DNA of 64,000 bases, taken from contig CANRKE010000001.1 in NCBI GenBank assembly GCA_947631135.1, forward strand, positions 8,475 through 72,474, given 5' to 3'. Below the pieces are notes generated by a model. The model saw only the letters and a list, made by a program, of their open reading frames with translations, was not told the origin of the DNA and made no database searches. Numbering within the stretch: position 1 is the stretch's first letter; each line of letters starts with the position of its first letter. This document shows, in pieces, positions 1,571 to 58,135 of this stretch. The stretch comes from an uncultured Bacilli bacterium. GTDB lineage: Bacteria; Bacillota_I; Bacilli_A; RF39; UBA660. The position numbers were made by a program, and so were the translations under genes.

Positions 1571-2068
1571 GTGATGTTAGTAATGAAAAAAATATTAAAA
1601 AGAGCTTTTTTTATTATATTACTTTTGATAATAATATATATAGTATACTTACATACTCTTTATGATTATAATTTTTATTCATCACTAATTGAAATTCCTA
1701 TACCAATGTTTGCAAAGATGGAGGAAAAGGACACACATGGTGGATTTCATGGAGATGGGGAATCATTAGTAAAAATATATTTTTCGAACAAACAAGCAGA
1801 AAAATTTATAAAAAAAATTAAAAACAATACTCATTGGAGTACTTTACCAATTGATGAAATATTACAAAATTGTATAAACAATAATAGTATAGAAGGTATG
1901 TCTGTACCTCTTGTAGAAAATGGATATTGGTTCTTTTTAGATAGACATAGCAATGCAACAAATAAATATGATTATAATGATATGTTCAATAGAGCTTCTT
2001 CAAATTATTCTGTTGCTATATTTGATAAAGAATCTAATATACTCTATATTTATTCATTAGATACATAA
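1571..2068 (+). CDS. Hypothetical membrane-anchored protein with N-terminal TM helix
   Basis: Hydrophobic N-terminus (FFIILLLIIIYIVYL). Start 4 nt after the stop of the upstream ORF. Confidence 0.45.
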   Translation: MMLVMKKILKRAFFIILLLIIIYIVYLHTLYDYNFYSSLIEIPIPMFAKMEEKDTHGGFHGDGESLVKIYFSNKQAEKFIKKIKNNTHWSTLPIDEILQNCINNNSIEGMSVPLVENGYWFFLDRHSNATNKYDYNDMFNRASSNYSVAIFDKESNILYIYSLDT

Positions 2069-7374: not shown

Positions 7375-7818
7375 TTAAATCACCTCGATTTTTCCACCTG
7401 AATTTTCAACTTTTTCTAAAGCTTTTTTGCTATATTTATGTGCTTTGATAGTCAATTTTTTTTCTAATTCTCCAGTTGCTAATACTTTAATACCACTTAA
7501 TTCTTTTTTAACAATTCCTTTTTCAATTAACATTTCTGGAGTAACTACATCTCCATCGTTAAATACATTTAAATCACTTAAATTAACAGTTGCATATACT
7601 TTTTTAAATCTTGCATTGCTAAATCCTCTTTTTGGTAAACGTCTGAATAATGGTAATTGTCCACCTTCAAATCCTGGACGAACTCCACCACCACTACGTG
7701 CGTTTTGTCCTTTATGTCCTTTACCACTAGTTTTTCCTAATCCACTACCTGGACCACGTCCAACTATTTTTCTTCTATGTGTAGATCCTTCCATAGGATG
7801 CATTTCATGTAATTTCAT
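7375..7818 (-). CDS. rplO: 50S ribosomal protein L15
   Basis: Homology and synteny; directly abuts rpsE, with no intervening L30 gene. Confidence 0.95.
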
Positions 7819-7819
7819 A

Positions 7820-8332
7820 TTATCCTAATATCTCCTCTACTGTTTTACCTCTTAATTTAGCAATATGTTCAGCACTTCTTTGAGAAGCTAATGCATTTAT
7901 TGTTGATTGTGCCATATTTATTTTTGTATTTGAACCAAGTGATTTAGAAACAACATCTTTAACACCAGCAAGATCTAATACTGAACGAACTGGTCCACCA
8001 GCTATAACTCCAGTACCTTCTTTAGCAGGTTTAATTAATACTCTTGATGCTCCACTTCTACCAATTGCTTCGTGTGAAATTGTTCTGTTATCTACAAGTG
8101 ATATTTGAATTATATTTTTTGTTGCATTTTGACTAGCTTTCTTTATTGCATCAGGAACTTCATTTGCTTTACCAGTACCTAATCCAACTTTCCCTTTTCT
8201 ATCTCCAACAGCAACAACTGCACTAAATCTAAAATTACGTCCACCTTTAGTAACTTTAGTTATACGTCTAACAGCTATTACTTCTTCGTCATATATCTTC
8301 TTTGGTGGGTTATATTTTTTTCTTTCCATCAT
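7820..8332 (-). CDS. rpsE: 30S ribosomal protein S5
   Basis: Homology and synteny. Confidence 0.95.
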
Positions 8333-39552: not shown

Positions 39553-41238
39553 TTATCTTTTAAAATTAATAACTATTTGATAAAGATTACCTAAATCTTG
39601 TTCATTTATTTCAATTCCATAACCATTTCCTTGTAAATTCATTATTGTATTTCTTATAACAGCAACTGCTCCTGTAATATCTTGTTGCATTATCATTGAT
39701 TGTGATGATGGATTATCATTTACTTGAGGTTCTTGCATTTGTTGAGGTTGTTGTTGATTATACATGTTCATATCTGCATTGTTTTGTTGCATATTTTGTT
39801 GAGGTTGCATATACATTTGTTGATTGTTCATCATATTATTTTGATTGATATTTTGATCATAATTTGGTTGTTGATAATTATTCATAGGATTATTTTGCAT
39901 CATATTATTATCCATTTGATTATTCATAGGGTTTTGTTGAACTGTTTGATTCATATTATTCATAACAGGTTGTTGCATTTGTTGTTGTTCCATATTATTG
40001 CCTTGTTGCATTCCATAATTATTCATACCATTATTTGGCATATTTTGTTGCATTTGTTGAGGTTGCATATTACCCATATTTTGTGCTTGCATATTTTGTT
40101 GCTGCATATCATTCATATTATTATCTTGCATTTGTGGGTTTTCATCAGGTAATGAACTTTCTGTAAAATTACTTATATCTTGATTATTTTGTTCACTTTC
40201 TGCTTCTTGTGCTTCTTCGGGAGCAGGTATATTTGGCATTTGCATATCATTATTTTGTTCCATATTTTGGTTATTCATATCTACTTGATTGTTAGTATTC
40301 ATTTGTTGATCTTGCACAAATTGTGTTGGAGTTGGAGAAAATGAAGAATCAAAATTCATATTAGCTGCTTGATTATCATAGTTAAAAAATCTTGATGGTT
40401 CTTGTACTTGTGCATTATTAACTACTTGTTCATTTATATATGCTCCATTTTGTTGACTACTATTTATATTTATTTGGTCGTAATCTGGTATATTTGGTAT
40501 ACCACTATTAGCAGTAAAATTATCTATTACTGGACTATTATTTTCATTCATATTATCACCCTTTTTATTATCATCATCATCTGAAAAATCTAATATTTCT
40601 TCAGTTTGTTCCAAATTACTATTATTATCAATTAAATCTTTTATATATTTATCAGTTTCTCTTACTGTCATTCTTTTTTCTATGATTTTATTTAATGTAT
40701 CATTTTGCATATCATGATCTTTTAATCTCAATAAACTTCTTGCATGTCTTTCACTAATTTTATTATCTAAAACAGCTTGTTGTGCTTCATTTGATAGATT
40801 TAATAATCTAAGTTTATTTGATATTGTAGATTGTCCCTTACCTATTTTTTTAGCAAGTTCTTCTTGTTTGATTTGTCCTAATCCTAATATTTGTTGGTAA
40901 GACTTTGCTTCTTCTATAGCAGTTAAATCTCTTCTTTGTACATTTTCAATCAAAGCAATTTCTGCTGATGAAGAATCATCTAATTCCATAACAATTGCAG
41001 GAACGGACATCAAACCTATCATACATGCTGCTTTATATCTCCTTTCACCTGCAATTATTTCAAACTTGTCTCCCAACTTTCTTAAAACTAATGGTTGTAT
41101 TATACCATATTGTCTAATCGATTCGGCAAGCTCATTTAATAATTCTGGGTCAAAGTTTTTTCTAGGTTGAAATCTGTTCGGTATTATGTTGTTAACTGAA
41201 ACATTTTCTATTTTCATTTTACTATAGTCAATGTTCAT
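39553..41238 (-). CDS. ParB/Spo0J/Noc-family protein with a long Q/N/M-rich low-complexity insert
   Basis: ParB N-terminal domain (IIPNRFQPRKNFDPELLNELAESIRQYGIIQPLVLRK...IIAGERRYKAA) and HTH, then ~280 aa dominated by Q, N and M, then a short C-terminal domain. Follows rsmG, as noc/spo0J do in Firmicutes. Confidence 0.75.
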   Translation of the reverse strand: MNIDYSKMKIENVSVNNIIPNRFQPRKNFDPELLNELAESIRQYGIIQPLVLRKLGDKFEIIAGERRYKAACMIGLMSVPAIVMELDDSSSAEIALIENVQRRDLTAIEEAKSYQQILGLGQIKQEELAKKIGKGQSTISNKLRLLNLSNEAQQAVLDNKISERHARSLLRLKDHDMQNDTLNKIIEKRMTVRETDKYIKDLIDNNSNLEQTEEILDFSDDDDNKKGDNMNENNSPVIDNFTANSGIPNIPDYDQININSSQQNGAYINEQVVNNAQVQEPSRFFNYDNQAANMNFDSSFSPTPTQFVQDQQMNTNNQVDMNNQNMEQNNDMQMPNIPAPEEAQEAESEQNNQDISNFTESSLPDENPQMQDNNMNDMQQQNMQAQNMGNMQPQQMQQNMPNNGMNNYGMQQGNNMEQQQMQQPVMNNMNQTVQQNPMNNQMDNNMMQNNPMNNYQQPNYDQNINQNNMMNNQQMYMQPQQNMQQNNADMNMYNQQQPQQMQEPQVNDNPSSQSMIMQQDITGAVAVIRNTIMNLQGNGYGIEINEQDLGNLYQIVINFKR

Positions 41239-45874: not shown

Positions 45875-46800
45875 TTTCTCTTCTTCTCCCTCTTAACCAT
45901 CAAATTTTGGAAAATAGTAAATAGGGATGATGCAATCCAATATAGTGCGATTGCTGTTGGTAATGAGAAAGATGCTACTGTTATAAATATAATTAAAAAT
46001 CTTGTCATAAATTTCATTTGTTGTTCTTGTTCTGGTGATGCTGCTGTTTGATTTAATTTAAATGAAAAATATGTAGTTCCAATTATAAGTACTAATAATA
46101 TAAGATATATATAATGTCCTTTAGTAAGTGCGACTATTGGTGTTGTACCAAGATCTAATGTTAAAAACTTACCTTCAAATAGTGCTGGTATTCTGTTTAC
46201 TGCTTCTAAGAATGCAAAGAATACTGGAATTTGTAGAAATGAGAATAAGCACCCACTCATAGGATTTATGTTGTACTTTTTATATACTGCTAATGTTTCT
46301 TGAGTTTTCATCATCATTACATCTTTATCATCTTGTGGTTTATTTGCATATTTTCTTTCTATTTTATCTATTTCTGGTTGTGCTTTCTTTATATATTCAG
46401 ATTGTAGTGCTGTTTTTTTAGTAATTGGATATGTTACTAATCTTATTAATAAACTTACTATTATTATTGATAACCCATAATTTTTAATAAGTAATCCAAT
46501 CTTTATTATGCACCATGCAAGTGGCTTTACAAAAATTGATGTCCATAATCCCTCATATCCACCTGAATTTATTTTAAAATCTTTACATGCAACTAATTTG
46601 TCAACATTAACATCGTTTTCTTTGTAAAGTTTTATTACATCTTCGTTTGTTGGTCTACAAAGTATATTTTCATATAATGTTTGTCCTGTTTCTTTATAAG
46701 TTATTACTTTCTTATCTTTTCCCACTAATGTTTTAGTACAACCTGTAGTAAGAAATAATACACCTATTAATAAAATTATTATTTTTTTATATTTTTTCAT
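45871..46800 (-). CDS. yidC: Membrane protein insertase YidC/SpoIIIJ (lipoprotein type)
   Basis: Lipobox LTTGC; multi-TM; synteny rnpA-yidC-jag. Confidence 0.9.
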   Translation of the reverse strand: MKKYKKIIILLIGVLFLTTGCTKTLVGKDKKVITYKETGQTLYENILCRPTNEDVIKLYKENDVNVDKLVACKDFKINSGGYEGLWTSIFVKPLAWCIIKIGLLIKNYGLSIIIVSLLIRLVTYPITKKTALQSEYIKKAQPEIDKIERKYANKPQDDKDVMMMKTQETLAVYKKYNINPMSGCLFSFLQIPVFFAFLEAVNRIPALFEGKFLTLDLGTTPIVALTKGHYIYLILLVLIIGTTYFSFKLNQTAASPEQEQQMKFMTRFLIIFITVASFSLPTAIALYWIASSLFTIFQNLMVKREKKRK

Positions 46801-47135
46801 TATTTCATCTCCATCTTTTTTATTAAGGATAATATTTTTTCTTCTTTATATTTGAATTTTTTTAATTCGTTTCCCTTTCTTATCATTATAATATATTCTT
46901 TATCATTTGGAAATAGTTTTTTATATTTATGAATAATATTTTTTGTTTGTCTTTTAAGTTTGTTTCTAAGAACTGCATTCCCTATTTTTTTTGGTACTGA
47001 TATTCCAAATTTTTTAACATCACTATCTATATAATATATAGTGTAGATATCATTACTTATATATATTTGATTTTTTATTATTTCTTGAAATCTTTTATTT
47101 TCTTTTATAATATCTTCTTTATTCATAAGTATCAC
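46800..47135 (-). CDS. rnpA: Ribonuclease P protein component
   Basis: Basic ~110-aa protein immediately downstream of rpmH. Confidence 0.85.
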   Translation of the reverse strand: MILMNKEDIIKENKRFQEIIKNQIYISNDIYTIYYIDSDVKKFGISVPKKIGNAVLRNKLKRQTKNIIHKYKKLFPNDKEYIIMIRKGNELKKFKYKEEKILSLIKKMEMK

Positions 47136-47145
47136 CTACCGTTAG

Positions 47146-47169
47146 AAAAAAAACCACTATTTATAGTGG
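47146..47169 (-). terminator. Intrinsic terminator/attenuator between rpmH and rnpA
   Basis: Minus-strand hairpin CCACUAUAAAUAGUGG followed by a U8-9 run. Confidence 0.45.
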
Positions 47170-47180
47170 ATTAATACTCA

Positions 47181-47303
47181 TTACTTACAAAGTCTTTTAC
47201 GTCCTTTTCTTCTTCTACTAGATAAAATTTTAGATTCAGCACGTTTCATAAAACCATGTTTCTTTTTCATTTTTCTATTGTTTGGTTGATAAGTTCTTTT
47301 CAT
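47181..47303 (-). CDS. rpmH: 50S ribosomal protein L34
   Basis: Hand-translated MKRTYQPNNRKMKKKHGFMKRAESKILSSRRRKGRKRLCK; not in the ORF track (<60 aa). Confidence 0.85.
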   Translation of the reverse strand: MKRTYQPNNRKMKKKHGFMKRAESKILSSRRRKGRKRLCK

Positions 47304-47454
47304 TTTAACACCTCCAAGCATATATTCTATTTTTTCTTTCGCATATATAATTATAAAGAAATATATTTTTTTGTCAATATTTTTTATAAACTTTTCTTAA
47401 GTCAATAATAAAAATTTTATAATTTTATTACATTTTTTTTAATTTATTATTAAA

Positions 47455-48378
47455 CTAATAATATATAGTTATTGTATGATGAGTTTTACTTTTTTTATTT
47501 TTCTTTCCCATACACCATATTAAATTATCTAATTCAACAGAATTTATAATTATATTTTTTTCTTTTAGTTTTTCTTTTATTATTTCAATTACATATAACA
47601 TGTTAGCTCTAATTTCTATTTCCATTTCACTATCATGTAATAATTCTACTTCATTATCGACAATATCTTCTAATGCATCATTGTATACTAAAATACCATA
47701 ATCTCTGAATGTTCTTGGTATTCCATAATCAGCACACCCACTTAAGTTATTTACATTTTTTAAATTATTATTAATTGTTTCTGATAAATAATATAAATCA
47801 TTTGTAAGTAAAATTGCACGTTTATTAAAGTGTATTATTTTGTTTTTATAAAAAGACTTATCGTCAAAACTTTTAAAGTTATTTGTAATATAATTTAATA
47901 AATCTATATCTTTTTTTATAGAAAATATTTCATTATAAAAATTCTTATTATCATAAATATAATTTATTGTTTCAATAAAATTATTATATCTCTCATTTAA
48001 TAATGGAATTTTTCCTTCAACAGAATTAAAAATATTTTCAAATTGTTTTTTATTAATTGAATGTAAATATTCTATATTTAAAAATTTTGAATTACTTTCT
48101 ACTTTTTTTATTATTGAATAAAATAAAGCATTTGATCCACTCATAATTTCATGATTATATTCTATTTTCCATTTTGGTTTTTTCCAAAAGCAAAAATTCA
48201 TAGATTCTATTATAAAAGCTAGTAATATCCATTCTTTCTCACTTAATTTAATATTTAAATCTTTTGACCAATGTTTATAATTAATTTCTTTTAAGTTATT
48301 TATAAAGTCATTAATCTTATTATTATTGATTTTAACATATTTACTATTTTTTACTACATATTCAAATTCATCTTTCAT
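47455..48378 (-). CDS. Queuosine-salvage family protein (DUF2419/Qng1-like nucleotide N-glycosylase)
   Basis: CADYGIPRTFRDYGILVYN...SEMEIEIRANMLYVIE parallels the Qng1 signature ADYRVPQLLRALGALRYS...EEQEIRAASILAVE. N-terminal MNFCFWKK parallels LNFSFWSD. Confidence 0.6.
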   Translation of the reverse strand: MKDEFEYVVKNSKYVKINNNKINDFINNLKEINYKHWSKDLNIKLSEKEWILLAFIIESMNFCFWKKPKWKIEYNHEIMSGSNALFYSIIKKVESNSKFLNIEYLHSINKKQFENIFNSVEGKIPLLNERYNNFIETINYIYDNKNFYNEIFSIKKDIDLLNYITNNFKSFDDKSFYKNKIIHFNKRAILLTNDLYYLSETINNNLKNVNNLSGCADYGIPRTFRDYGILVYNDALEDIVDNEVELLHDSEMEIEIRANMLYVIEIIKEKLKEKNIIINSVELDNLIWCMGKKNKKSKTHHTITIYY

Positions 48379-48381
48379 ATA

Positions 48382-48936
48382 CTATTCCTTTCTTAATAAT
48401 AATTTTTTACTTTTTATAATATTGTTTATTTGTAACATTGTATTGTCAATAGAATTATTATTATCAACAATATAAATTTTATCATATTTTTTATATAATT
48501 GTAAATAAACATTGTTTTCATAATTATAAAAATCTTCATCAAAAATAAAATTATTTCTTTTTTGTAATCTTTCTTTAATTTTATATTTGCTTACTTTTAA
48601 ATATATAGTGTGTGGATGAAATATATTTATAGATAATATTTCATCGGCTGTTTCTTGTATTGTTTTTTTTAGTTGATAATTTAACCTAATTATAGTTGTA
48701 TAAAAGAATCTATCAAATATATAATTACCATTATTACATTCATATATATTGGCTTCATGTCCTATTATATAAATTTTTTTTTGTAACTCTGCATTACAAG
48801 TTCTGGCAAATTCTATATATTTTCTATACCAATCAGGGATAGATGTTCTAGGAATAATATTATATTCTTTTGATATATGTTTAATTAATGTTGATTTGCC
48901 AGATCCATTACTTCCTTCTAAAACTAATATTGACAT
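48382..48936 (-). CDS. P-loop nucleoside/nucleotide kinase (deoxynucleoside kinase / thymidylate kinase-like)
   Basis: Walker A VLEGSNGSGKSTL and a DRF(F)Y motif resembling the TMPK/dNK DR(Y/H) motif; 184 aa. Confidence 0.6.
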   Translation of the reverse strand: MSILVLEGSNGSGKSTLIKHISKEYNIIPRTSIPDWYRKYIEFARTCNAELQKKIYIIGHEANIYECNNGNYIFDRFFYTTIIRLNYQLKKTIQETADEILSINIFHPHTIYLKVSKYKIKERLQKRNNFIFDEDFYNYENNVYLQLYKKYDKIYIVDNNNSIDNTMLQINNIIKSKKLLLRKE

Positions 48937-50945
48937 TATATTTTCCTCATTACTAATACATGTTTTTGTGAATTATTTCTTGTTTTAATTTTAATATCAT
49001 GAGAATTTCCTATATCATAATCCCAAAAATTCCTATTTATGATTTCTAGTATATCATTTAATTCAAAAAACATTTGATTAAAATCATATTCTTTAATTAT
49101 TTGATTTTTATAATACAACTTATAAACTGTTTGTTCTTTCGCACTTTTAATATCATAATGACGTTGAATAACTAATTTATATTTTTCATCGACATATAAT
49201 TCTTTGTAAAAATTTGTATCCACACTTTCTCTCCATATTTTATTAAAACAGTCAAATACTATTATTCCGTTTTTTCTTAATATTAAATATATTTTATTTA
49301 ACATTTTACTTAATTCTTCTTTATTGCTATAGCAGTTATATAGGCTATATGCATAATCAAAAAGATAATTAAAATTGTGCATCAAAAAATCATCTTTTAT
49401 ATAAATAAAATCTTTTTCATTACCAATAAATTGATAAGATTCATAATCTATACCTACTATGTCATTATATCCTGCCTTTTTTAATTGATTTGCTATTCTT
49501 CCATATCCACACATGATGTCTAGTATTTTACCATTTTTATTTGAAAAGATTTTTGAAAGAAAATCTATTTCTTTTATAGTATAATTTGACATTGCTTTCG
49601 ATGTGTAATTGTGATATGTACCTAATTCATTAAAAGATTTTCTATCTTTGATTATATTAACGTTCATTTTTTCATTATCTAATTGATCAGCAAATAAACT
49701 ATTATTTATATTGTTTTGATTTAATATTATTTTAATTTCTTGCTTTTGAATCATACTTAAGAAATTAGTGCATATTATAATATAATTTTTAAATAATTCA
49801 TAGTTTAATTCATTTATATTTCTTTTTAAATCATTAATAATTGCAATTATTATACTTGTTTTACTGTAGTTTTCTATATTTGGTAAGTATAAATCATTTG
49901 TACCATAAACCACAATTTTATTAAGTATATTTTTTTCATTGTATTTTTGATTATTTGTATTCGATAATAGAATATATCCAAAAAATTTTCCTAATGCATC
50001 AATTAAATATTGTCTATCATATTCATTATTTTGCATTTTTAAAATATATTCTTTAAATATCATACTTTGCTTTTTATTATTGATAAAATTAAATGGATTA
50101 CTTTTGTAGGTAGTATTAAATTCTGTAGAAAGTATGATTGGAAGTTGAGATTTAACTGTTTTTTTTCTGCCATATATGATACCAAATTGATTAAATTCGT
50201 TTATTAGTTTTTCTTTTAAATATGATGGAAAATATATATTATTAGCAAATAAGTTCAAATAATTATTGGAATCTATATTATTTTTTTTAAAAAAATTATG
50301 AATATTAATTATAAATTCTTTCCTAAGTTTATTAAATTCAAGTCTATCATAATTTATATTAAAACCTTTTAATATTGAATCAGCTAATATTCCTAGATAT
50401 ATATTGTCATTTTTTTCAATATGTGAAAAATCTAGATGAATATAATGATCTTTACCATCTTCTGTTATAAACGATGGCGAAATAAAGTTAACTGTAATTC
50501 TTGAATTGTCAGTTCCGTAAGCAAAAAATAAGCTAGTATTTCTATCATGTGATATTTTTTTAATTATTATTTCTTTATTTAATTCACAAATATTTTTAAT
50601 AAGTTTTTTAGATACTAGATTTATAGTGCTTTTTATACTATTATATATACCATTTAGTCTTATAATATCTATTTCCCCAGCAAATAATAATTTTAGATCC
50701 AAGTCAAGATATTTTTTTTCAAAATTAAAGTTAGTTGTTTTTAAAAATTCTATTATTTTTTCTATATCTTTTTGATTTTCATATATAATCATGAAATCAA
50801 AATCTCCAATTTTATTTTTATTATTATACTTTATAGAATCGTAAGCAAATCCTCCACCTGTTACAAATGATGCATTGATATTATTATCTTTTAACAATAA
50901 ATTAATTTCTTTACAAAAATTACTTCCTACATTTCTGTAATTCAT
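48936..50945 (-). CDS. Two-domain protein: N-terminal polymerase-beta-type nucleotidyltransferase-like domain fused to a C-terminal class I SAM-dependent methyltransferase
   Basis: N-terminus VTGGGFAYDSIKYNNKNKIGDFDFMII (hG[GS]-x(n)-DhDh). C-terminus ILDIMCGYGR (motif I), VGIDYES (post-I acidic), LRKNGIIVFD (motif III). Confidence 0.55.
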   Translation of the reverse strand: MNYRNVGSNFCKEINLLLKDNNINASFVTGGGFAYDSIKYNNKNKIGDFDFMIIYENQKDIEKIIEFLKTTNFNFEKKYLDLDLKLLFAGEIDIIRLNGIYNSIKSTINLVSKKLIKNICELNKEIIIKKISHDRNTSLFFAYGTDNSRITVNFISPSFITEDGKDHYIHLDFSHIEKNDNIYLGILADSILKGFNINYDRLEFNKLRKEFIINIHNFFKKNNIDSNNYLNLFANNIYFPSYLKEKLINEFNQFGIIYGRKKTVKSQLPIILSTEFNTTYKSNPFNFINNKKQSMIFKEYILKMQNNEYDRQYLIDALGKFFGYILLSNTNNQKYNEKNILNKIVVYGTNDLYLPNIENYSKTSIIIAIINDLKRNINELNYELFKNYIIICTNFLSMIQKQEIKIILNQNNINNSLFADQLDNEKMNVNIIKDRKSFNELGTYHNYTSKAMSNYTIKEIDFLSKIFSNKNGKILDIMCGYGRIANQLKKAGYNDIVGIDYESYQFIGNEKDFIYIKDDFLMHNFNYLFDYAYSLYNCYSNKEELSKMLNKIYLILRKNGIIVFDCFNKIWRESVDTNFYKELYVDEKYKLVIQRHYDIKSAKEQTVYKLYYKNQIIKEYDFNQMFFELNDILEIINRNFWDYDIGNSHDIKIKTRNNSQKHVLVMRKI

Positions 50946-50958
50946 ATTTTTTCCTCCT

Positions 50959-51798
50959 TTATTTTCTTAAATACATAGTACATACGTTATTTTTTGTCAT
51001 TACTTTACTCCTAGAATACATAGTTTCCATTGGTAAATAAACACCATTTTCTTGTTTTTTAATATAATCGGAAATAATATTATATATGGTGTATAGTTTA
51101 TCATTTCTTTTTTTTATTTCTTTATTGGACCAATTCATTTTCTTATAAAACTCAATATTATTTTTATAAAAATTATAATAATTTTTGTCTTTATTTAAAT
51201 TATCAGAAATATATCCAATAGTATATTTTGAATCATTATAAATATCAGATAAAAATATTATTTCTGTTTCATCAAAATTTTTGGATGCTTTTTCTTTAAA
51301 TTTTTTTTCATGAGTATTCAATTCTTTTTTCCAATTAGGATTTAGGTCATAATTAGTATTTTCTAAAAATATATTAGCTAAAGTTATTTTAAAGTTTACT
51401 GGTATCTTTTCTTGTTGAAATAAATTTTTTATTTCTTTTAGTATATTTAATCGTTTAGAATTATTTTCACCTATATAATCTTTATATCCAGTATTCGTAT
51501 ATCCTGGACAAAAAATTGCATTAAAGTTGATAATAGAATTATTAATTATATAATATATAAAAGATGTTAAATCTTTTTTAGTATTATACTTATAATCAAA
51601 GTAACAATTTAATTTATTAATTATGTTCCATAAATAATTTATGTTGTTTATATCTACATTTATTAATTGTTTTTCAATAGAGGCATCACCGTTTTTTATT
51701 AATCCAGTAATTATAGATTTAATTATTTTTGTGTTTTCAGCAGTATGTACTATATTTAATTTATTAAATATATAATTATAATCAAACATTTTAATCAC
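50959..51798 (-). CDS. Hypothetical protein (279 aa), operon member
   Basis: Intact ORF tightly packed between the flanking genes; no family recognised. Confidence 0.5.
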   Translation of the reverse strand: MIKMFDYNYIFNKLNIVHTAENTKIIKSIITGLIKNGDASIEKQLINVDINNINYLWNIINKLNCYFDYKYNTKKDLTSFIYYIINNSIINFNAIFCPGYTNTGYKDYIGENNSKRLNILKEIKNLFQQEKIPVNFKITLANIFLENTNYDLNPNWKKELNTHEKKFKEKASKNFDETEIIFLSDIYNDSKYTIGYISDNLNKDKNYYNFYKNNIEFYKKMNWSNKEIKKRNDKLYTIYNIISDYIKKQENGVYLPMETMYSRSKVMTKNNVCTMYLRK

Positions 51799-51865
51799 AA
51801 ATTCCTTTCATTTTATTCAAAATATACATAATTATAAAAAGCATTTATTTTTTCAACATAATTTT

Positions 51866-52669
51866 CTACTTTAGTCTTTTATCTAACTTTTTTTCATTAT
51901 TAATGATACCATGTGCATATACATTATGTTCATGAATTGACTCATAATTAATAAGTTCTGCTTCTATTTTATTATTATATTTTTCAGCAACAGCTAAAAG
52001 TAAATCTCTTATTAAATCTTCTGAAAATTTTGGATTTTCATAAGCTAATTCTGTAATATATTTTTCATCTGTTCTTTTAACTGTACTATATACATTAGAA
52101 CTAAATGACTTTTCCATTATATTGATAATTTCTTCTAAATTAATTTTTTCATAATTCTCGTGTAATATTATTGTTGCCTTACATTTTTGATTATGTGCCC
52201 CGTATTTCGATATGTCTTTGGAACAAGGACATAACATTGTTCCTATAATAGAAATTGATAAACTTTTTTTATTAATATCATTTATTTTGGAATTGTTTAT
52301 TTTCAAATTAACAGTAAAATAAGAATTTTTCTTTGAAATTGGTGAAATTCTTTTTAAAATAATATCAAAATCCATAGTTAATGACATATTGTTAGTTTCC
52401 GTTCTTTTTATTGTAGTATTTATAATTTCATTAATATCTTCAAGTGATATAATTTTATCACACAAATAGTCATTTAATACTTCAATAATTCTGCTTAAAT
52501 GTGCTCCACGAGAATTTTTTTCAAGTGAAACGTTACTAGATATATTACAGATTGAATGATACAATTTATTATTTATAGATAGTGTAATAGGTAATTTGTA
52601 ATCACAAATTCCAATATTACTTATAAAAATATTTCTATCATCTTTTTCATTTTGCAAATCTTTAAGCAT
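51866..52669 (-). CDS. GTP cyclohydrolase FolE2/MptA family (GTP cyclohydrolase I type 2)
   Basis: Matches three FolE2 signatures: RGAHLSR (G-x-H-M/L-SR), MLCPCSKDISKYGAHNQK (CPCSKEIS...GAHNQR) and C-terminal ESIHEHNVYA (ESIH-x-H-x-A-x-A). Confidence 0.7.
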   Translation of the reverse strand: MLKDLQNEKDDRNIFISNIGICDYKLPITLSINNKLYHSICNISSNVSLEKNSRGAHLSRIIEVLNDYLCDKIISLEDINEIINTTIKRTETNNMSLTMDFDIILKRISPISKKNSYFTVNLKINNSKINDINKKSLSISIIGTMLCPCSKDISKYGAHNQKCKATIILHENYEKINLEEIINIMEKSFSSNVYSTVKRTDEKYITELAYENPKFSEDLIRDLLLAVAEKYNNKIEAELINYESIHEHNVYAHGIINNEKKLDKRLK

Positions 52670-53519
52670 TTTTTAACACCTCTTCTATTTTTAATATATT
52701 CTCCTTATTTTTTAAAGCATCTATCCATTTTAAACTATTGTTCTCTATATAATCTCTATTTAAAATTTTCTTTTCATATAAATATACATCTTTCAACAAA
52801 TTATATATAATACAATATTTAAATAATAAATGTATATTGTTTTTTTCTTCTTTTTCAAGTTTAATATTATTATTAAAGTAATTTGAAATAAATACTTTTA
52901 TATTATCAATATCATAATTTTTATTTTTTATAAAAAACCACATAATTACTCTTATTATATCAATAAGTCTATTTCCAATATAAACGTTACCAAAATCAAT
53001 TAGAAATATTTTATTATTATTAATTATAATATTTTCCTTTTTTATATCTGAATGAACGATACATTTTGAAAGAGCATCAAGATTTATGTTTTGAATTTCT
53101 TTAAATATTTTATTTATAAAATTTAAATCTTTAGATAAATATTTAGATCTTATTGCTACACTATAATATTGGTTTAATTTGTTTAGTGATTCTTCATTTT
53201 CTTTATGTTTTTTTATTTTTTCATTAAGAGGTATAGAGTGAAGTTTTTTCAATAATAATGCCAAATTTTTAAAAAATGATTTATCAAAAGTATTAGGATT
53301 ATTTCCATATATATATTTTAATATCATTACATTTTTTGAATTAAAAATAAATTTTGAAATTAATTTAGGACTCTCAAAATCATATTTTTTAAGATATTTT
53401 AAAATCTTAATTTCAAAGCTATTATCAATTTCACTCATTCTAATTATATATTTTTGTTTTCTTATTGTAAAAATGTATACATCATTTATGTTATTATTTT
53501 TAATTTTTTCTAAATTCAC
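52662..53519 (-). CDS. Protein-kinase-like fold phosphotransferase (APH/choline kinase/CotS family small-molecule kinase)
   Basis: Brenner motif VHSDIKKEN (HxDxxxxN) and LIDFGN (DFG-like). 8-nt overlap with the downstream FolE2 gene. Confidence 0.6.
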   Translation of the reverse strand: MNLEKIKNNNINDVYIFTIRKQKYIIRMSEIDNSFEIKILKYLKKYDFESPKLISKFIFNSKNVMILKYIYGNNPNTFDKSFFKNLALLLKKLHSIPLNEKIKKHKENEESLNKLNQYYSVAIRSKYLSKDLNFINKIFKEIQNINLDALSKCIVHSDIKKENIIINNNKIFLIDFGNVYIGNRLIDIIRVIMWFFIKNKNYDIDNIKVFISNYFNNNIKLEKEEKNNIHLLFKYCIIYNLLKDVYLYEKKILNRDYIENNSLKWIDALKNKENILKIEEVLKNA

Positions 53520-53575
53520 ATATATTCCCCCTTTTTCTAAAACTTTAGTATATTATTCCAAGAAATCGCTAATTA

Positions 53576-53604
53576 TTCTATTACTTTTACAATTAAATGT
53601 CAAT
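53576..53604 (-). promoter_or_regulatory. Candidate promoter of the six-gene island operon
   Basis: Minus strand TTGACA-17 nt-TAGAAT, ~50 nt upstream of the first gene's AGGGGG RBS. Confidence 0.35.
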
Positions 53605-53708
53605 AGAATACATATTTTTTATAAATTTTTCAGGATAAATTCATGAAATAAATTTATTTGTTATAAATAATTACTAAAAACGTACATAGAAAAACATCTA
53701 TAAAATAT

Positions 53709-53737
53709 TTGCTTTTATGTTACAAATATTGTATAAT
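53709..53737 (+). promoter_or_regulatory. Candidate promoter for the 192-aa gene
   Basis: TTGCTT-17 nt-TATAAT. Confidence 0.35.
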
Positions 53738-53898
53738 AAGTGCTGAAAGGAAAAATTTGTTAGAAAAATAATATTTTAATTAAAAATAAATCGTTCAGTA
53801 AATGATTTATTTAAGATTAGTGTGATGTAATTGATAAAATATAAATTTCATTTTTTAATAATTTTAATATAGTAAAAGTATTAGGAGGTTATAATTTT

Positions 53899-54477
53899 AT
53901 GAAAAAAATAGATTTAGATGAATTCGATGATTCAAATATGTTTGCTAATGATACTATTGAAAATTTAAAAAAAGATTGTAAGAACGGTTTTCAATTATTA
54001 AAAATAATAATCGATGGAAAGCCAAAAAATATTAATCCTCTAACAGAAATACCAGAACCTCAAATGAGATTGTTTGGCTTTTCTGATGCTTTTAATAGTG
54101 TATATTTTGAAACTGAAGAAGAATTAATTGAATGGGCAAAAGAACATAATAGAGATTCTGATAGTATACGCGTAATGGATTATTTAGGAACAGTTGCTGG
54201 TCGTAGTGATGTAATTAGAGTAAAATATCCAGGTGGAAAAGATTTATTATTTACTCATTGTGATGAAGATGGATATGGAATATACAATTATAACAGAAGC
54301 AATTATAGAGGCGAATTTATATGGGAATATAGTTACGGAAGCATTAGTGATATGTACAAAGAATTTAGAGATAGAGGTATTGTGTTTGAAAATGATATCT
54401 ATGCAAAAATTGAAGAAAGTAAAAAAGAATTATTTAAAAAGATTAAAGAAATAAATAAAAAACATTTTAACAAATAA
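53899..54477 (+). CDS. Hypothetical protein (192 aa) adjacent to oriC
   Basis: Intact ORF with GGAGG RBS; no recognisable family. Confidence 0.5.
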   Translation: MKKIDLDEFDDSNMFANDTIENLKKDCKNGFQLLKIIIDGKPKNINPLTEIPEPQMRLFGFSDAFNSVYFETEEELIEWAKEHNRDSDSIRVMDYLGTVAGRSDVIRVKYPGGKDLLFTHCDEDGYGIYNYNRSNYRGEFIWEYSYGSISDMYKEFRDRGIVFENDIYAKIEESKKELFKKIKEINKKHFNK

Positions 54478-54619
54478 TAATTCTTAAATTAATTATAAGA
54501 TGCTTAACTTAAAAAGTATCTTTTTTATTTGATTAATATTTAATTTATAAAATAGTTAATATTACTTTTCCCAGGAAATAAATTTTACTATATGGGGAAA
54601 TAATAATATTTTCCATAAA

Positions 54620-54825
54620 AAATATTTCCCACAGGTATGTGGAAAAAATTGTGGAAAACTAACCCTTATAAAATATGGATAAACTTTAGTTTTCCACAGT
54701 TATCCACAGGCATGTGCAAAAAAAGTTAACAAGTGTGTAAACTTTTTCCACAGGATTGTGCATAACTTATATTTCCCAGTAAAAAATAAGATTTTTTCCT
54801 GTTGAAAACTTTGTGGAAAAAAATT
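54620..54825. promoter_or_regulatory. oriC DnaA-box cluster upstream of dnaA
   Basis: TTATCCACA at 54700-54708. TTTTCCACA variants on either strand at 54638-54646, 54650-54658, 54690-54698, 54744-54752 and 54812-54820. TTTCCCACA at 54625-54633. Confidence 0.7.
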
Positions 54826-54910
54826 TTATTAAATTTGCCAATATATCTTTTTTTTTGTCGATATTTAGTTTAAAATAATTAGTAAGAGATGTAGTAAGGG
54901 AGGTGGGTAT

Positions 54911-56269
54911 ATGAATGTTAATAGTATTTGGAATAATTTTTTGGAGAACATTAAATTACAAATTACAAATCTATCTTATGAAACTTGGTTTAAGAATACT
55001 AAGTTATTAGAAATTAAAGATGGTGTAGCTAAGATAGTTGTTGAAACTTATGTACATAAAAAACATTTACTTGAAAACTATACTGATTTAATAATTGATA
55101 CTTTAAATCAAGTAACTGGTACAAACTTTTATATTGAATTTATATTGGAAGATGAACTAAATAATGAGAATGCAGAAATAGATGTAGATTTAATTGGTGT
55201 ACCTAATAGTAAGAATAGAATAGAATCAAATCTAAATTCCAAATATGATTTTGATTCATTCATTGTTGGTGAAAGTAATAGATTTGCACATGCTGCTGCT
55301 TTATCTGTTGCGGAAAATCCTGGTAAGATGTATAATCCATTATTTATATATGGAAAGAGTGGTTTAGGTAAAACTCATTTAATGCATGCGATTGGAAATT
55401 ATATCGATGCTAATTCTTCAAAAACTGTTTTATATGTTACTAGTGATCAATTTATTAATGATTTTGTTGAAATTAATAAAAAAGATAAAAATGATAATAA
55501 TTATGATTATGTTGAATATTTTAAAAATAAATATAGAAATATAGATGTATTAATTATTGATGATATACAATTTTTAGGAAGTGCAGCTCAAACTCAACAA
55601 GAATTTTTCCACACTTTTAATAAATTGTATGACGATAATAAACAGATTATAATATCATCAGATAGATCACCAGACGATTTAAAAATTCTAGAAGATAGAT
55701 TAAGAACAAGATTTGGTTGGGGATTATCAGTTAATATTTTTCCACCTGATTTTGAACTAAGAAAAAATATATTAGTTAAAAAAATATCTGCTCAGGGAGT
55801 TAATAGTAAAATACCAAATGACGTTATTGAATATATTGCGAATAATTGTCAATCAGATGTTAGACAATTAGAGGGAGCTATAACAAGATTATTTGCATAT
55901 GCAACTATGATGAACGGAAGTGATATAACTTTAGAACTTGCAATAGAAGCTTTAAAAGATCATCTTCATAAATCAATAGGAGAAAAAAATAGTGTTAATA
56001 GAATACAAAGAATAGTATCTGATTATTATCATGTTACTGTTGAAGATTTAAAAAGTAAGAAAAGAAGTACACAAATTGCTTTTCCAAGACAAATAGCAAT
56101 GTATTTAACAAGAGTTCTTACTAATGAGTCTTTTCCTAAAATAGGAATTGAGTTTGGTGGAAGAGATCATTCAACAGTTATGCACTCAATAGATAAAATA
56201 GAAAAAGAAATAAATAAAAATAGACAATTAAAAAATATTGTTGATAAACTAAAAGAACAAGCAAGATAA
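54911..56269 (+). CDS. dnaA: Chromosomal replication initiator protein DnaA
   Basis: AAA+ Walker A GKSGLGKTHL; C-terminal DNA-binding domain (GGRDHSTVMHS). Confidence 0.95.
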   Translation: MNVNSIWNNFLENIKLQITNLSYETWFKNTKLLEIKDGVAKIVVETYVHKKHLLENYTDLIIDTLNQVTGTNFYIEFILEDELNNENAEIDVDLIGVPNSKNRIESNLNSKYDFDSFIVGESNRFAHAAALSVAENPGKMYNPLFIYGKSGLGKTHLMHAIGNYIDANSSKTVLYVTSDQFINDFVEINKKDKNDNNYDYVEYFKNKYRNIDVLIIDDIQFLGSAAQTQQEFFHTFNKLYDDNKQIIISSDRSPDDLKILEDRLRTRFGWGLSVNIFPPDFELRKNILVKKISAQGVNSKIPNDVIEYIANNCQSDVRQLEGAITRLFAYATMMNGSDITLELAIEALKDHLHKSIGEKNSVNRIQRIVSDYYHVTVEDLKSKKRSTQIAFPRQIAMYLTRVLTNESFPKIGIEFGGRDHSTVMHSIDKIEKEINKNRQLKNIVDKLKEQAR

Positions 56270-57682: not shown

Positions 57683-58135
57683 ATGTTAAGTTATTATTTA
57701 ATTAATGATGAAACATGTGCTCTTGTTCCTGTTAATGAATATAAAACTAGAATATATGAACTTACTAGAAAATTTGAGGTTTCTCAAAATATTAAAACTA
57801 TAGTTAATGATAGTTGTTTAAAATTTGGTAGTTCTTATAGTGGACGTGCAGCTGCAACTAAATATGCTATTGGTTATACACATAAAGTTCCTATTTGTGT
57901 AAATGAATCAACATTAAATATATTTTTTCCTACTAAATCACCAAGGTTAGAGGATTGTGCATGGATAAGTTATAAAAATATATATATATATGGAAGAAAT
58001 AGTAAAAATTCATTTATAACATTTAGAAATAATGAAACAATACAAGTTGATGTTAGTTATGCTGTTATACAAAATCAATTATTTAGATCTTCTAGATTGG
58101 AATATTATGTCAAAAATACTTTTCCTCGTGTATAA
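57683..58135 (+). CDS. ComK-family competence transcription factor-like protein
   Basis: CLKFGSSYSGRAAATKYAIGYTHKVPICVNESTLNIFFPTKSPRLEDCAWIS aligns with B. subtilis ComK CRFFGSSYAGRKAGTYEVTKISHKPPIMVDPSNQIFLFPTLSSTRPQCGWIS. Confidence 0.7.
   Translation: MLSYYLINDETCALVPVNEYKTRIYELTRKFEVSQNIKTIVNDSCLKFGSSYSGRAAATKYAIGYTHKVPICVNESTLNIFFPTKSPRLEDCAWISYKNIYIYGRNSKNSFITFRNNETIQVDVSYAVIQNQLFRSSRLEYYVKNTFPRV

Follow-up and report, generated by a model that had tools for sequence, protein, structure and literature searches.

The six genes on the minus strand between rpmH and dnaA (47455-53519) constitute a real, conserved and mobile enzyme cassette. The DNA analysed was from an uncultured gut Bacilli bacterium (GTDB lineage Bacteria; Bacillota_I; Bacilli_A; RF39; UBA660; assembly GCA_947631135.1, contig CANRKE010000001.1, positions 8,475-72,474, forward), and this whole stretch of 64,000 nt is called the window. 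The key to the system is the 279-aa product of gene 3, whose nature was missed in the first-pass annotation. It is a new aaRS/CDPS-like enzyme and the invariant partner of a FolE2-type GTP cyclohydrolase, and its enzyme family is previously undescribed. The cassette probably makes or processes a modified guanine- or pterin-like compound. Our tentative reading is that this accessory operon moves horizontally and encodes a GTP-derived small-molecule pathway not described before. No operon of this composition was found in the literature, as had been supposed from the sequence.

The features of the locus are listed in Table 1. The 7.6-kb rpmH-dnaA interval (7,589 nt from start to start) contains the six genes and one orphan ORF on the plus strand. 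The ORF listing reproduced exactly the co-directional arrangement that had been described. Genes 1 and 2 overlap by 8 nt and genes 4 and 5 by 1 nt, and gaps of 67, 13 and 3 nt separate genes 2 and 3, genes 3 and 4, and genes 5 and 6, respectively. For gene 3, the ATG at 51789 is the likelier start, and the public gene call is 276 aa from there. The GC skew switches its sign at ~53.5 kb of the window. Therefore, the cassette borders on oriC, and its genes run in the direction of replication. A candidate promoter of the operon was recognised from its consensus match (11 of 12 positions). No Rfam element was found in the operon leader, and the cassette has no transporter, regulator or riboswitch that would hint at a ligand.

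Table 1. Features of the rpmH-dnaA interval (window coordinates).
Feature	Position	Strand	Length	Description
rpmH	47181-47321	-		left flank of cassette
Direct repeat, left copy	47377-47396	.	20 nt	ATATTTTTTATAAACTTTTC
Gene 6	47455-48378	-	307 aa	Qng1/Q_salvage-family nucleotide N-glycosidase with remodelled pocket
Gene 5	48382-48936	-	184 aa	P-loop NMP-kinase-like protein
Gene 4	48936-50945	-	669 aa	NTase::SAM-MTase fusion
Gene 4, C-terminal domain	48936-49610	-	aa ~446-669	class-I SAM-dependent methyltransferase
Gene 4, N-terminal domain	49611-50945	-	aa 1-445	Pol-beta-superfamily nucleotidyltransferase
Gene 3	50959-51798	-	279 aa	class-Ic aaRS-like (TyrRS/CDPS/IsnA-fold) enzyme
Gene 2	51866-52669	-	267 aa	FolE2-type GTP cyclohydrolase IB
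Gene 1	52662-53519	-	285 aa	APH/protein-kinase-fold small-molecule kinase
Candidate sigma-70-type promoter	53575-53603	-		TTGACA, 17-nt spacer, TAGAAT
Direct repeat, right copy	53612-53631	.	20 nt	ATATTTTTTATAAATTTTTC
Orphan ORF	53899-54477	+	192 aa	between cassette and DnaA boxes; AGGAGG ribosome-binding site
DnaA-box cluster	~54590-54830			precedes dnaA
dnaA	54911-56269	+		right flank of cassette

Neighbourhood conservation had been named as a check in the first-pass annotation. All six genes, in unchanged order and with 45-77% protein identity, were found again in at least 19 loci fetched independently, and these loci fall into ~8 distinct lineages of gut MAGs labelled Bacilli or 'Tenericutes'. 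Therefore, the six genes are not chance ORFs. The supposed insertion between rpmH and dnaA was supported. In a related species (L040, 80-85% DNA identity), the cassette is not present upstream of dnaA. The GC content of the cassette is 0.189 vs 0.257 in the remainder of the window. Its distribution is patchy, and its chromosomal site differs from lineage to lineage. The window's copy is surrounded by housekeeping genes beside oriC, and the neighbours at other loci are serine recombinases, MazEF, Fic, a type IIG restriction-modification gene or Bro-N. Patatin is also among the neighbours in such variable, island-like contexts. Q_salvage, the MTase and the kinases vary among the cassette versions and are not universal, so the parts may not form one linear pathway.

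The five domain assignments made earlier (APH-type kinase, FolE2, NTase::MTase, P-loop kinase and Qng1) all hold, with the MTase just under the Pfam cut-offs. Gene 2 matched PF02649 (GCHY-1) with an E-value of 7e-65 and PDB 3d2o/2r5r with 3e-43. Its metal-ligand and catalytic motifs (CPCSK..GAHNQ, KRxDEKY and ESIHxH) are intact and align with NGO0387 (3d2o), which places it in the FolE2/GCYH-IB family. Equivalog status as FolE2 or MptA was rejected because both scores are under the curated cut-offs (NF010200, 192.4 bits against 215; TIGR00294, 134.8 against 220). The metal-binding and catalytic motifs are the same as those of FolE2 in the folate, preQ0 and queuosine pathways. In contrast to known FolE2 and to MptA of methanopterin synthesis, gene 2 is not linked to QueD/E/C, FolB/K/P or MptB and always stands with the aaRS-like gene. 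FolE2 is directly upstream of that gene in all 24 tier-1 loci having upstream sequence, often with an overlap or with 2-25 nt between the genes.

A structure search of the 279-aa protein, as suggested in the first-pass annotation, found a fold like that of class-Ic aminoacyl-tRNA synthetases (as in TyrRS, CDPS and isonitrile synthase). The match is distant (Foldseek E ~1e-3, TM 0.4-0.6). The close fold relatives are TyrRS, TrpRS, CDPS, PvcA/PIsnA, CysRS and MshC, all of which bind amino acids or aminoacyl groups. The protein has the Rossmann catalytic fold of class I aaRSs and, at only 279 aa, does not have their anticodon-binding domain. On inspection, HIGH and KMSKS were not among the invariant columns of two alignments, so any ATP-dependent adenylation is hypothetical. 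There was no sequence-level match in the PDB, nor detectable sequence similarity to the class-Ic aaRS derivatives CDPS, IsnA/PvcA, MshC and GluQRS. The protein differs from these by the missing HIGH/KMSKS, by its own invariant motifs (FCPGY, GYK, LEN, RNDxL and PxExMYxR), by an additional N-terminal region of ~85 aa and by its linkage to a GTP cyclohydrolase. The family is tiny, with 91 representatives in 1.84 billion proteins. In 5.8 billion proteins it forms 86 clusters and the NTase::MTase family 49, and both families were found solely together with the cassette. Distant members of the aaRS-like superfamily keep an invariant C-P-x-Y, E, R and E. Their neighbours are FolE2 and CYTH (L027), CYTH and ADK (L026), or, in L029-L037, ADK::GTP-cyclohydrolase-II fusions, DUF84 NTPase, DegT aminotransferase and LPG_synthase_C or GNAT acyl-transferases. 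Some also carry a fused LPG_synthase_C aminoacyl-transferase domain or adenylate kinase. Thus, the constant theme of these neighbourhoods is a GTP ring-opening enzyme of either type with nucleotide kinases or phosphatases.

Gene 1 belongs to the APH family (PF01636, E 2.5e-14, 54 bits against a cut-off of 23.2). Its matches to homoserine kinase, CotS and APH(3') models are weak and far under the cut-offs, giving no equivalog-level assignment, and the PDB match was APH(2'') at E 1e-3. Gene 5 matched Thymidylate_kin PF02223 (E 3e-7, 30.7 bits against 27), phrog_761 'thymidylate kinase' (E 1.7e-19) and TIGR00041 (E 2.8e-8, under its cut-off). It is nearest to dTMP-kinase-type families and has no sequence-level PDB match. 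In gene 4, the MTase domain matched Methyltransf_25/23/11 (E 1e-5 to 5e-4, all slightly under the Pfam cut-offs) and PDB 1wzn (E 2e-4). This domain is a stand-alone gene upstream of FolE2 in three loci (L012, L015 and L019). The NTase domain has the NTase fold with an invariant GGG/DxD motif, as in the Pol-beta superfamily, and a fold match to Tam41. Its identity as a cGAS/DncV-like CD-NTase (CBASS) was rejected, with no PADLOC match and no effector/Cap genes. LicA/LicC is an activation pair of choline kinase and cytidylyltransferase, and Tam41 is a CDP-DAG synthase. As in those systems, an APH-fold kinase and a Pol-beta/Tam41-like NTase share one operon here, and this analogy suggests that a substrate is first phosphorylated and that an NMP is then transferred to its phosphate. 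However, the cassette proteins are not sequence-level members of these families, and the NTase is fused to the MTase.

Gene 6 matched Q_salvage (PF10343, E 3.7e-45, 155 bits against 25) and StQng1 (PDB 7uk3/7u07, E 1e-32). By sequence, it is a true member of this family, with the HhH catalytic Lys/Asp and the C-terminal Tyr present. With Qng1/DUF2419 proteins (StQng1 and human QNG1) it shares the HhH-glycosylase-type fold family, the catalytic Lys/Asp, the ribose-stacking Phe/Tyr, the base-face Asp/Trp and the C-terminal Tyr carboxylate. F75, K199, D231, Y232, D298 and W302 (StQng1 numbering) are kept, and the equivalents of K199, D231 and Y323 are kept in 117-118 of 118 homologues. The residue roles in StQng1 have been described, and its pocket for the cyclopentenediol-aminomethyl group is formed by W48, Y93, W94, W299, P46 and H53 (PMC9881137). 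In contrast, this pocket for the queuosine 7-substituent is remodelled in gene 6. Only W48 is kept, H53 and P46 are variable, and the other changes are Y93 to S, W94 to N and W299 to N. Among the 118 homologues, position 93 is Ser in all, position 94 is Asn in 116 and position 299 is Asn or Ser in 116. Gene 6 as a queuosine-5'-monophosphate-specific hydrolase was rejected because the aromatic side-chain pocket is missing. Furthermore, gene 6 is embedded in a GTP-cyclohydrolase cassette, whereas Qng1/DUF2419 stands alone in a Q-auxotroph. Four loci (L004, L012, L017 and L019) are without Q_salvage and retain FolE2 and the aaRS-like gene.

The protein folds, the motifs and the linkage of the genes were observed, and from fold and gene neighbourhood we infer every chemical step of the following route. 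An amino-acid-type unit would be coupled to a GTP-derived heterocycle, the product methylated and the base released or recycled. At first, FolE2 would open the imidazole ring of GTP to give dihydroneopterin triphosphate or a ring-opened diaminopyrimidine nucleotide. The aaRS-like enzyme may join this intermediate to a co-substrate of amino-acid type, which would be adenylated in free form or carried by a tRNA, and build a new or substituted ring at the former C8/N7. The SAM-MTase domain would methylate the product. Three parts, the APH-type kinase, the P-loop NMP kinase and the Pol-beta NTase domain, would control how the intermediates are phosphorylated or nucleotidylated. In sister cassettes, a CYTH triphosphatase and a GCH-II-like protein stand in for the kinases and the NTase. 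The Qng1-like N-glycosidase would recognise a 2-amino-4-oxo (guanine-like) base via the conserved residues, and the 7/8 side of this base would face an enlarged and polar pocket. By cutting the base off ribose-5-phosphate, the glycosidase may release the final free heterocycle, or recycle or detoxify it. The product may be an antimetabolite, a cofactor or a modified-base precursor. The enzymes look active, judging from the retained FolE2 motifs, NTase GGG/DxD and Qng1 catalytic residues. That FolE2 appears catalytically canonical counts against the scheme. H2NTP, its normal product, is without an N-glycosidic bond, which leaves a Qng1-type glycosidase nothing to cleave in a pterin. Therefore, the scheme works only if a ring-opened intermediate is released or if one branch keeps the ribosyl bond.

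There is a precedent in the toxoflavin/pseudoiodinine pathway, in which GCH II yields a diaminopyrimidine nucleotide that is conjugated with glycine and then N-methylated (PMC9911603). Like the proposed route, the toxoflavin/fervenulin/pseudoiodinine systems (tox, psd) combine imidazole opening, amino acid conjugation, SAM methylations and a free heterocycle (PMC9911603). However, those clusters have GCH II with RibD, a WD40 protein and a sulfatase-modifying-factor-like protein, all missing from the cassette, and are without an aaRS-like enzyme, NTase, kinase or Qng1. The homology is solely at the level of the broad cyclohydrolase and MTase classes. A toxoflavin-type 7-azapteridine cluster (GCH II ToxB, RibD-like ToxE, ToxC/ToxD and ToxA) was rejected, as no RibD, WD40 or ToxD-like proteins were found. 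The window's cyclohydrolase is of type IB, not type II.

The first-pass annotation had proposed GTP-derived pterin or 7-deazapurine chemistry. The GTP link holds, and the 7-deazapurine version is not supported, with no QueD/E/C in any cassette version. A related alternative, which we consider rather unlikely, is salvage or remodelling of queuosine/7-deazaguanine. The P-loop kinase, or the APH kinase, would phosphorylate an imported Q-like nucleoside, the Qng1 homologue would free the base for insertion into tRNA, and FolE2 and the other enzymes would feed or tailor the 7-deazaguanine pool. For aaRS-like enzymes working on Q there is a precedent in GluQRS, a truncated class-I aaRS by which queuosine is aminoacylated. 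Gene 6 is a genuine Q_salvage member with all catalytic residues. The real substrate of Qng1 is the 5'-monophosphate, the kinase making it is still to be found (PMC9881137), and a kinase gene lies here 3 nt upstream of the glycosidase gene. Moreover, preQ0 synthesis begins with the FolE2 reaction (PMC5699537). Nevertheless, the loss of Y93, W94 and W299 in 116-118 of 118 homologues weakens this salvage reading, and Q_salvage is missing from the four loci named above. QueD, QueE and QueC had no match in the cassette genes or conserved neighbours, QueF, TGT, QueA/G/H and a Q-precursor transporter are likewise missing from every cassette version, and a salvage route has no need of a GTP cyclohydrolase. 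It is very unlikely that the aaRS-like enzyme acts on tRNA in the manner of GluQRS or CDPS and the cassette installs or processes a novel guanine-derived tRNA base. Its fold is nearest to the TyrRS/TrpRS catalytic domain and the tRNA-dependent CDPSs, and its distant relatives include fusions with the aa-tRNA-dependent LPG_synthase_C domain. A Qng1-type enzyme also releases a free base of the kind inserted into tRNA by TGT enzymes (PMC9881137). However, there is neither an anticodon-binding domain nor a TGT-like gene in any locus, and the genes tightly coupled to the aaRS-like gene encode a GTP cyclohydrolase and nucleotide kinases rather than tRNAs or tRNA-modification enzymes.

A conflict system seems quite unlikely. 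It would make a poisonous GTP-analogue nucleotide, raised to the triphosphate by the kinases, with the glycosidase as immunity or off-switch, similar to viperin with a kinase. The island-like contexts (type IIG restriction-modification, recombinase, MazEF, patatin, Fic and Bro-N genes), a GC content under that of the host and the patchy distribution are consistent with it. PADLOC also gave VakA and PDC-M51B matches for gene 5 (~1e-8) and PD-T4-6 models for the APH gene (up to 7e-7). However, these matches reflect generic P-loop and kinase cores, and FolE2, the aaRS-like protein, NTase::MTase and Q_salvage had none. A known anti-phage defence system was rejected, since the PADLOC-DB v2 matches were all of this generic kind. 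The cassette has no sensor or effector (nuclease, TIR, transmembrane protein or protease), and the window's copy lies amid housekeeping genes. Viral contigs gave no aaRS-like or NTase::MTase relatives and one weak Q_salvage match. The comparison with pVip-type defence made in the first-pass annotation found no direct support, given that four of the six proteins had nothing in PADLOC and two had weak generic matches. Like pVip loci with a nucleotide kinase, the cassette pairs a nucleotide-modifying enzyme with NMP-type kinases, sometimes in variable islands. Unlike them, it is without a radical-SAM viperin and a sensor/effector architecture, and its core genes are blank in PADLOC. Ordinary metabolism, in which FolE2 supplies folate/pterin precursors and its neighbours are unrelated housekeeping kinases and transferases co-transcribed by happenstance, is highly improbable. 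The canonical FolE2 motifs and the position among core genes at oriC would fit. Against it, the six genes move as a block to unrelated chromosomal sites, a related species has no cassette upstream of dnaA, and the aaRS-like and NTase::MTase families are extremely rare. FolB, FolK and FolP were not found in the window region or any fetched locus, and FolC is likewise linked in no locus.

The orphan 192-aa ORF, overlooked in the first-pass annotation, lies in the same inserted stretch as the six genes. It had no significant match in any profile library searched and no homologue of known function, its 90% cluster holds two members, and it is missing from L040 and from all other cassette loci. The stretch in which it stands is variable, and it may or may not belong to the cassette. 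The 20-nt direct repeat copies are 6,235 nt apart and enclose the six genes and their promoter. The repeat was not found at any of the other cassette loci. The left copy is a possible insertion scar or att-like core; alternatively, it may be an UP-element-like motif, as it extends into sequence that precedes the rpmH promoter. The window has three matches to the repeat vs none in 100 shuffles, and the third copy, with one mismatch, lies at 1799-1818(-).

The 279-aa protein encoded by the third gene of the cassette between rpmH and dnaA did not match any family in Pfam, NCBIfam, PADLOC, or PHROGs, and a sequence-profile search of its family against the PDB returned only noise. The family is represented by 86 clusters among 5.8 billion proteins, and an exhaustive profile search found 91 representatives among 1.84 billion proteins. 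Its alignment holds invariant, enzyme-like motifs (FCPGY, GYK, EN, RND.L.T.Y, and P.E.MY.R), and neither a HIGH nor a KMSKS motif is present. Structure prediction followed by Foldseek, which the first-pass annotation had suggested for this protein, was carried out and a class-Ic aminoacyl-tRNA synthetase (aaRS)-like fold was found. The model was confident (pLDDT 92) and matched the catalytic domain of class-Ic aaRSs and their derivatives. The top ranks were TyrRS (probability 1.0), a TrpRS homologue, the isonitrile synthase PIsnA (0.99), and CDPSs (0.98), with modest TM-scores of 0.4–0.6. All members of this fold group handle amino acids or aminoacyl groups. Because the predicted fold matches the group, yet PDB sequence similarity, HIGH, and KMSKS are all missing, the model places the aaRS-like protein as a new sequence family within it.

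Gene calls and profile searches described the window as an ordinary Bacillota origin region. The order left of the insert is prfA, argS, PBP1A, noc, rsmG, mnmG, mnmE, jag, yidC, rnpA, and rpmH, and that on the right is dnaA, dnaN, a comK-like ORF, recF, gyrB, and gyrA. The GC skew changes its sign at ~53.5 kb. The rpmH–dnaA interval of 7,589 nt contains six co-directional minus-strand ORFs and one plus-strand orphan ORF, and the ORF listing agreed exactly with the first-pass annotation on the six genes, their coordinates, overlaps, and gaps. A consensus scan located a strong promoter-like site 5' of the first cassette gene (TTGACA, 17-nt spacer, TAGAAT). No Rfam element was detected in 46500–55200 at E ≤ 1, and no riboswitch or leader naming a ligand was found upstream of eight other cassettes. 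The features are collected in the table.

Positions of the features in the window and at the loci compared with it
Feature	Sequence	Coordinates	Strand	Remark
rpmH	window	47181-47321	-	
Six-gene cassette	window	47455-53519	-	
dnaA	window	54911-56269	+	
DnaA-box cluster	window	~54590-54830		5' of dnaA
20-nt repeat, flanking copy	window	47377-47396		
20-nt repeat, flanking copy	window	53612-53631		
20-nt repeat, third copy	window	1799-1818	-	1 mismatch
Orphan ORF	window	53899-54477	+	192 aa; between cassette and DnaA boxes
ComK-type ORF	window	57683-58135	+	150 aa; between dnaN and recF
Noc/ParB-like protein	window	39553-41238	-	561 aa
CYTH-like gene	L009	~7679-8299		directly upstream of APH
510-aa GCH-II-like protein	L013	10877-12403		
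Serine recombinase and transpeptidase/PASTA ORF	L001-L003	3549-5844		dcw cluster
ComB-like gene (PF04029)	L022	13336-14034		
ComB-like gene (PF04029)	L023	8860-9558		
SAM riboswitch	L014	6358-6441		
MetK-like gene	L014	6478-7293		
Split aaRS-like gene	L019	10001-12717		

The domain calls made earlier for the other cassette proteins (Q_salvage, FolE2, APH, P-loop kinase, and SAM-MTase) were borne out by profile searches. Pfam matches were obtained for Q_salvage (PF10343, E 3.7e-45), FolE2/GCHY-1 (PF02649, E 7e-65), and APH (PF01636, E 2.5e-14). The cassette FolE2 falls short of the NCBI equivalog cut-off for FolE2 and also of that for MptA. The P-loop kinase is nearest to dTMP-kinase-type families (PF02223, E 3e-7; phrog_761, E 1.7e-19), and the SAM-MTase domain, which lies in the C-terminal third of the 669-aa NTase::MTase protein, matches just under the Pfam cut-offs. 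All seven insert proteins were scanned with PADLOC and PHROGs, and none gave a system-level match. None of the window's proteins is named in any source.

FolE2 lies directly upstream of the aaRS-like gene in all 24 loci of close relatives with upstream sequence. There are three versions of the cassette. The first is the six-gene form of the window. The second, in the Clostridium sp. CAG:417 group (L009–L011), has seven genes with a CYTH-like gene before APH, and bridges the kinase/NTase and CYTH/GCH-II architectures. The third consists of FolE2, the aaRS-like protein, a 510-aa protein, and a 209-aa CYTH-like protein, with an MTase at its start and Q_salvage at its end not always present. The rest of the window was searched for a CYTH or GCH-II partner, and none turned up. 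The 510-aa protein (L012–L019) combines a GCH-II core with an extra C-terminal domain of ~300 aa that has no known family. The core retains the Zn-cysteine motif SEC...CDC and reads EAQGWG at the place of EGRGIG in RibA. The Arg nucleophile for pyrophosphate release appears from the alignment to be replaced by Gln, and the protein may not be a true cyclohydrolase. A homology of the N-terminal NTase with either the 510-aa or the 209-aa protein was rejected by hhalign (probability <1%). Therefore, the NTase and these partners are non-homologous alternatives.

The distant members of the superfamily keep the invariant Cys-Pro-x-Tyr, Glu, Arg, and Glu. One of them (L027) occurs with FolE2 and CYTH and is fused to an adenylate-kinase (ADK) domain, another (L026) occurs with CYTH and ADK, and some sit with a GNAT instead. 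On environmental metagenome contigs (L030–L037), a conserved operon surrounds distant relatives in the order of ADK-like kinase, aaRS-like protein, LPG_synthase_C-type aminoacyl-transferase, DegT aminotransferase, ADK::GTP-cyclohydrolase-II fusion, DUF84 NTPase, and GreA/B-C-like protein. This operon, too, appears not to have been characterised. Throughout these neighbourhoods, an enzyme of either type that opens the imidazole ring of GTP recurs together with kinases or phosphatases of nucleotides and with domains for acyl or aminoacyl transfer. The aaRS-like proteins are an uncharacterised enzyme family, and its constant GTP cyclohydrolase partner and conserved active-site signature make its biochemistry directly testable. 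In one lineage, a ComB-like gene of the 2-phosphosulfolactate-phosphatase family follows Q_salvage by ~10 nt, and the cassette may thereby include a further phosphatase. Directly downstream of the cassette in one MAG are a SAM riboswitch and a MetK-like gene; the pair may be a local SAM supply for a methylation step, or a coincidence.

For the Qng1 homologue, residues defined in the structures of StQng1, a queuosine-5'-MP N-glycosidase, were mapped onto the window protein and 118 homologues; the residue roles were taken from PMC9881137. The catalytic, ribose-contact, and base-face residues (F75, K199, D231, Y232, D298, W302, and the C-terminal Tyr) are kept in 117–118 of the 118. Given this conservation, the protein very probably works as a nucleotide N-glycosidase and acts on a guanine-like base. 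On the other hand, the aromatic pocket for the queuosine side chain is replaced (Y93 by Ser in 118/118, W94 by Asn in 116/118, and W299 by Asn or Ser in 116/118), and positions H53 and P46 vary. The 7/8-side pocket is predicted to be different, larger, and more polar, and plain queuosine-5'-MP is therefore an unlikely substrate as judged from these replacements. Queuine salvage is the only role for which the Qng1/DUF2419 family has been known up to now; the family contains, as shown here, a selected paralogue whose different pocket implies another substrate. If the neighbouring kinase phosphorylates the nucleoside substrate of this homologue, it would provide a lead to the still-unidentified kinase of Qng1-type salvage.

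We infer every chemical step of the following scheme. FolE2 would open the GTP imidazole ring, an amino-acid-type unit would be joined to the GTP-derived intermediate by the aaRS-like enzyme, and the MTase domain would methylate it. The kinases and the NTase would manage the phosphate/nucleotide handle, a part taken in the sister cassettes by CYTH and the GCH-II-like protein. The re-specialised Qng1 would then remove ribose-5-phosphate from a guanine-like product or by-product. A precedent is found in toxoflavin/pseudoiodinine biosynthesis, where GCH II yields a diaminopyrimidine nucleotide to which glycine is conjugated before N-methylations (PMC9911603). The pathway logic is alike, but the specific enzymes of that pathway are all absent from the cassette. 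The scheme has weak points: the canonical FolE2 product offers Qng1 no glycosidic bond to cleave, the aaRS-like sequence lacks ATP-binding signatures, and several components are optional across the cassette versions. As a joint claim, it is a tentative one, and rather doubtful in its entirety, that an unrecognised superfamily distantly sharing the TyrRS/CDPS fold acts with GTP cyclohydrolases (IB or II) and uses an amino-acid-derived unit to reconstruct guanine on its imidazole side, giving a new class of guanine- or pteridine-like nucleobases or nucleotides in gut Bacilli, from which a re-specialised Qng1 paralogue frees the base. If this is true, the freed base could be an antimetabolite or a new precursor, comparable to queuine, for the modification of nucleic acids.

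The GC content of the cassette is 0.189 against 0.257 in its surroundings. A 20-nt A/T-rich direct repeat brackets it, and a third copy lies elsewhere in the window (three observed, none in shuffles). Each of the flanking copies is located just 5' of a strong minus-strand TTGACA promoter, and the repeat may be a scar left by insertion or an UP-element-like motif that recurs. It was rejected as a conserved att site because no copy was found at other cassette loci. In a related species with 80–85% DNA identity in the dnaA region, the cassette is absent upstream of dnaA and a different gene lies 5' of the DnaA boxes. The intact block occurs in other lineages after mraY-ftsW adjoining serine recombinases, between ffh and MazEF/patatin/rpoZ, after purF, and in a type-IIG-RM/recombinase/Bro-N/Fic island. 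In L001–L003, a large serine recombinase gene lies directly 5' of a short 198-aa transpeptidase/PASTA ORF, an arrangement that resembles, by analogy, a sporulation-type intervening element splitting a penicillin-binding-protein gene; a second large serine recombinase follows the cassette. A phage-borne cassette was rejected, since scans of viral contigs gave no match for the aaRS-like or NTase::MTase families and only one weak Q_salvage match (26% identity). Judged by their record titles, the hosts comprise MAGs of uncultured gut Bacilli, "Tenericutes" or Erysipelotrichaceae, as well as Clostridium sp. CAG:417 and Candidatus Aphodocola (Bacilli incertae sedis). These observations fit a pathway that is accessory and exchanged horizontally. 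They suggest that uncultured gut Bacilli with small genomes possess, and pass among themselves, a pathway dedicated to a GTP-derived metabolite. Such a metabolite could matter to the gut ecosystem as a new nucleobase micronutrient, antimetabolite, or cofactor.

Other roles of the cassette were also considered. The rarity of the block and its movement as a unit make ordinary folate metabolism unlikely. Three observations weaken queuosine salvage, one of the roles raised in the first-pass annotation: the pocket is remodelled, QueD/E/C/TGT are absent, and Q_salvage is optional among the cassette versions. The island-like contexts would suit a defence or toxin role, but this role has no direct support, as PADLOC matches were generic only and neither an effector nor a meaningful phage counterpart was found. 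It is possible that the aaRS-like enzyme is directed at tRNA. As had been anticipated, literature searches found no operon of this composition, nor any description of the aaRS-like family. We rate the cassette as a GTP-cyclohydrolase-initiated heterocycle pathway, which is a known kind, and the aaRS-like enzyme family and the Qng1 specificity class as new.

The only cultured, complete genome with a relative of the aaRS-like gene, a distant one, is that of Fusibacter sp. JL216-2 (NZ_CP192292.1, L019). The gene is split there into parts covering residues 10–242 and 217–277, ~1.8 kb apart, and between them lies a minus-strand ORF of 561 aa that contains TINNQTD repeats; the aaRS-like gene is probably an insertion-disrupted pseudogene. 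The orphan ORF of the window, which the first-pass annotation did not list, has a strong AGGAGG ribosome-binding site. It had no match in Pfam, NCBIfam, PADLOC, or PHROGs, has two members only in its 90% cluster, and is missing from the related species and from every other cassette locus. In the Noc/ParB-like protein, the family match covers the first ~212 residues and is followed by a C-terminal extension of ~350 aa without a domain match. The orthologue of the ORF between dnaN and recF in the related species (L040) has a ComK domain (PF06338), and it is unusual for this conserved position to be taken by a ComK-type ORF.
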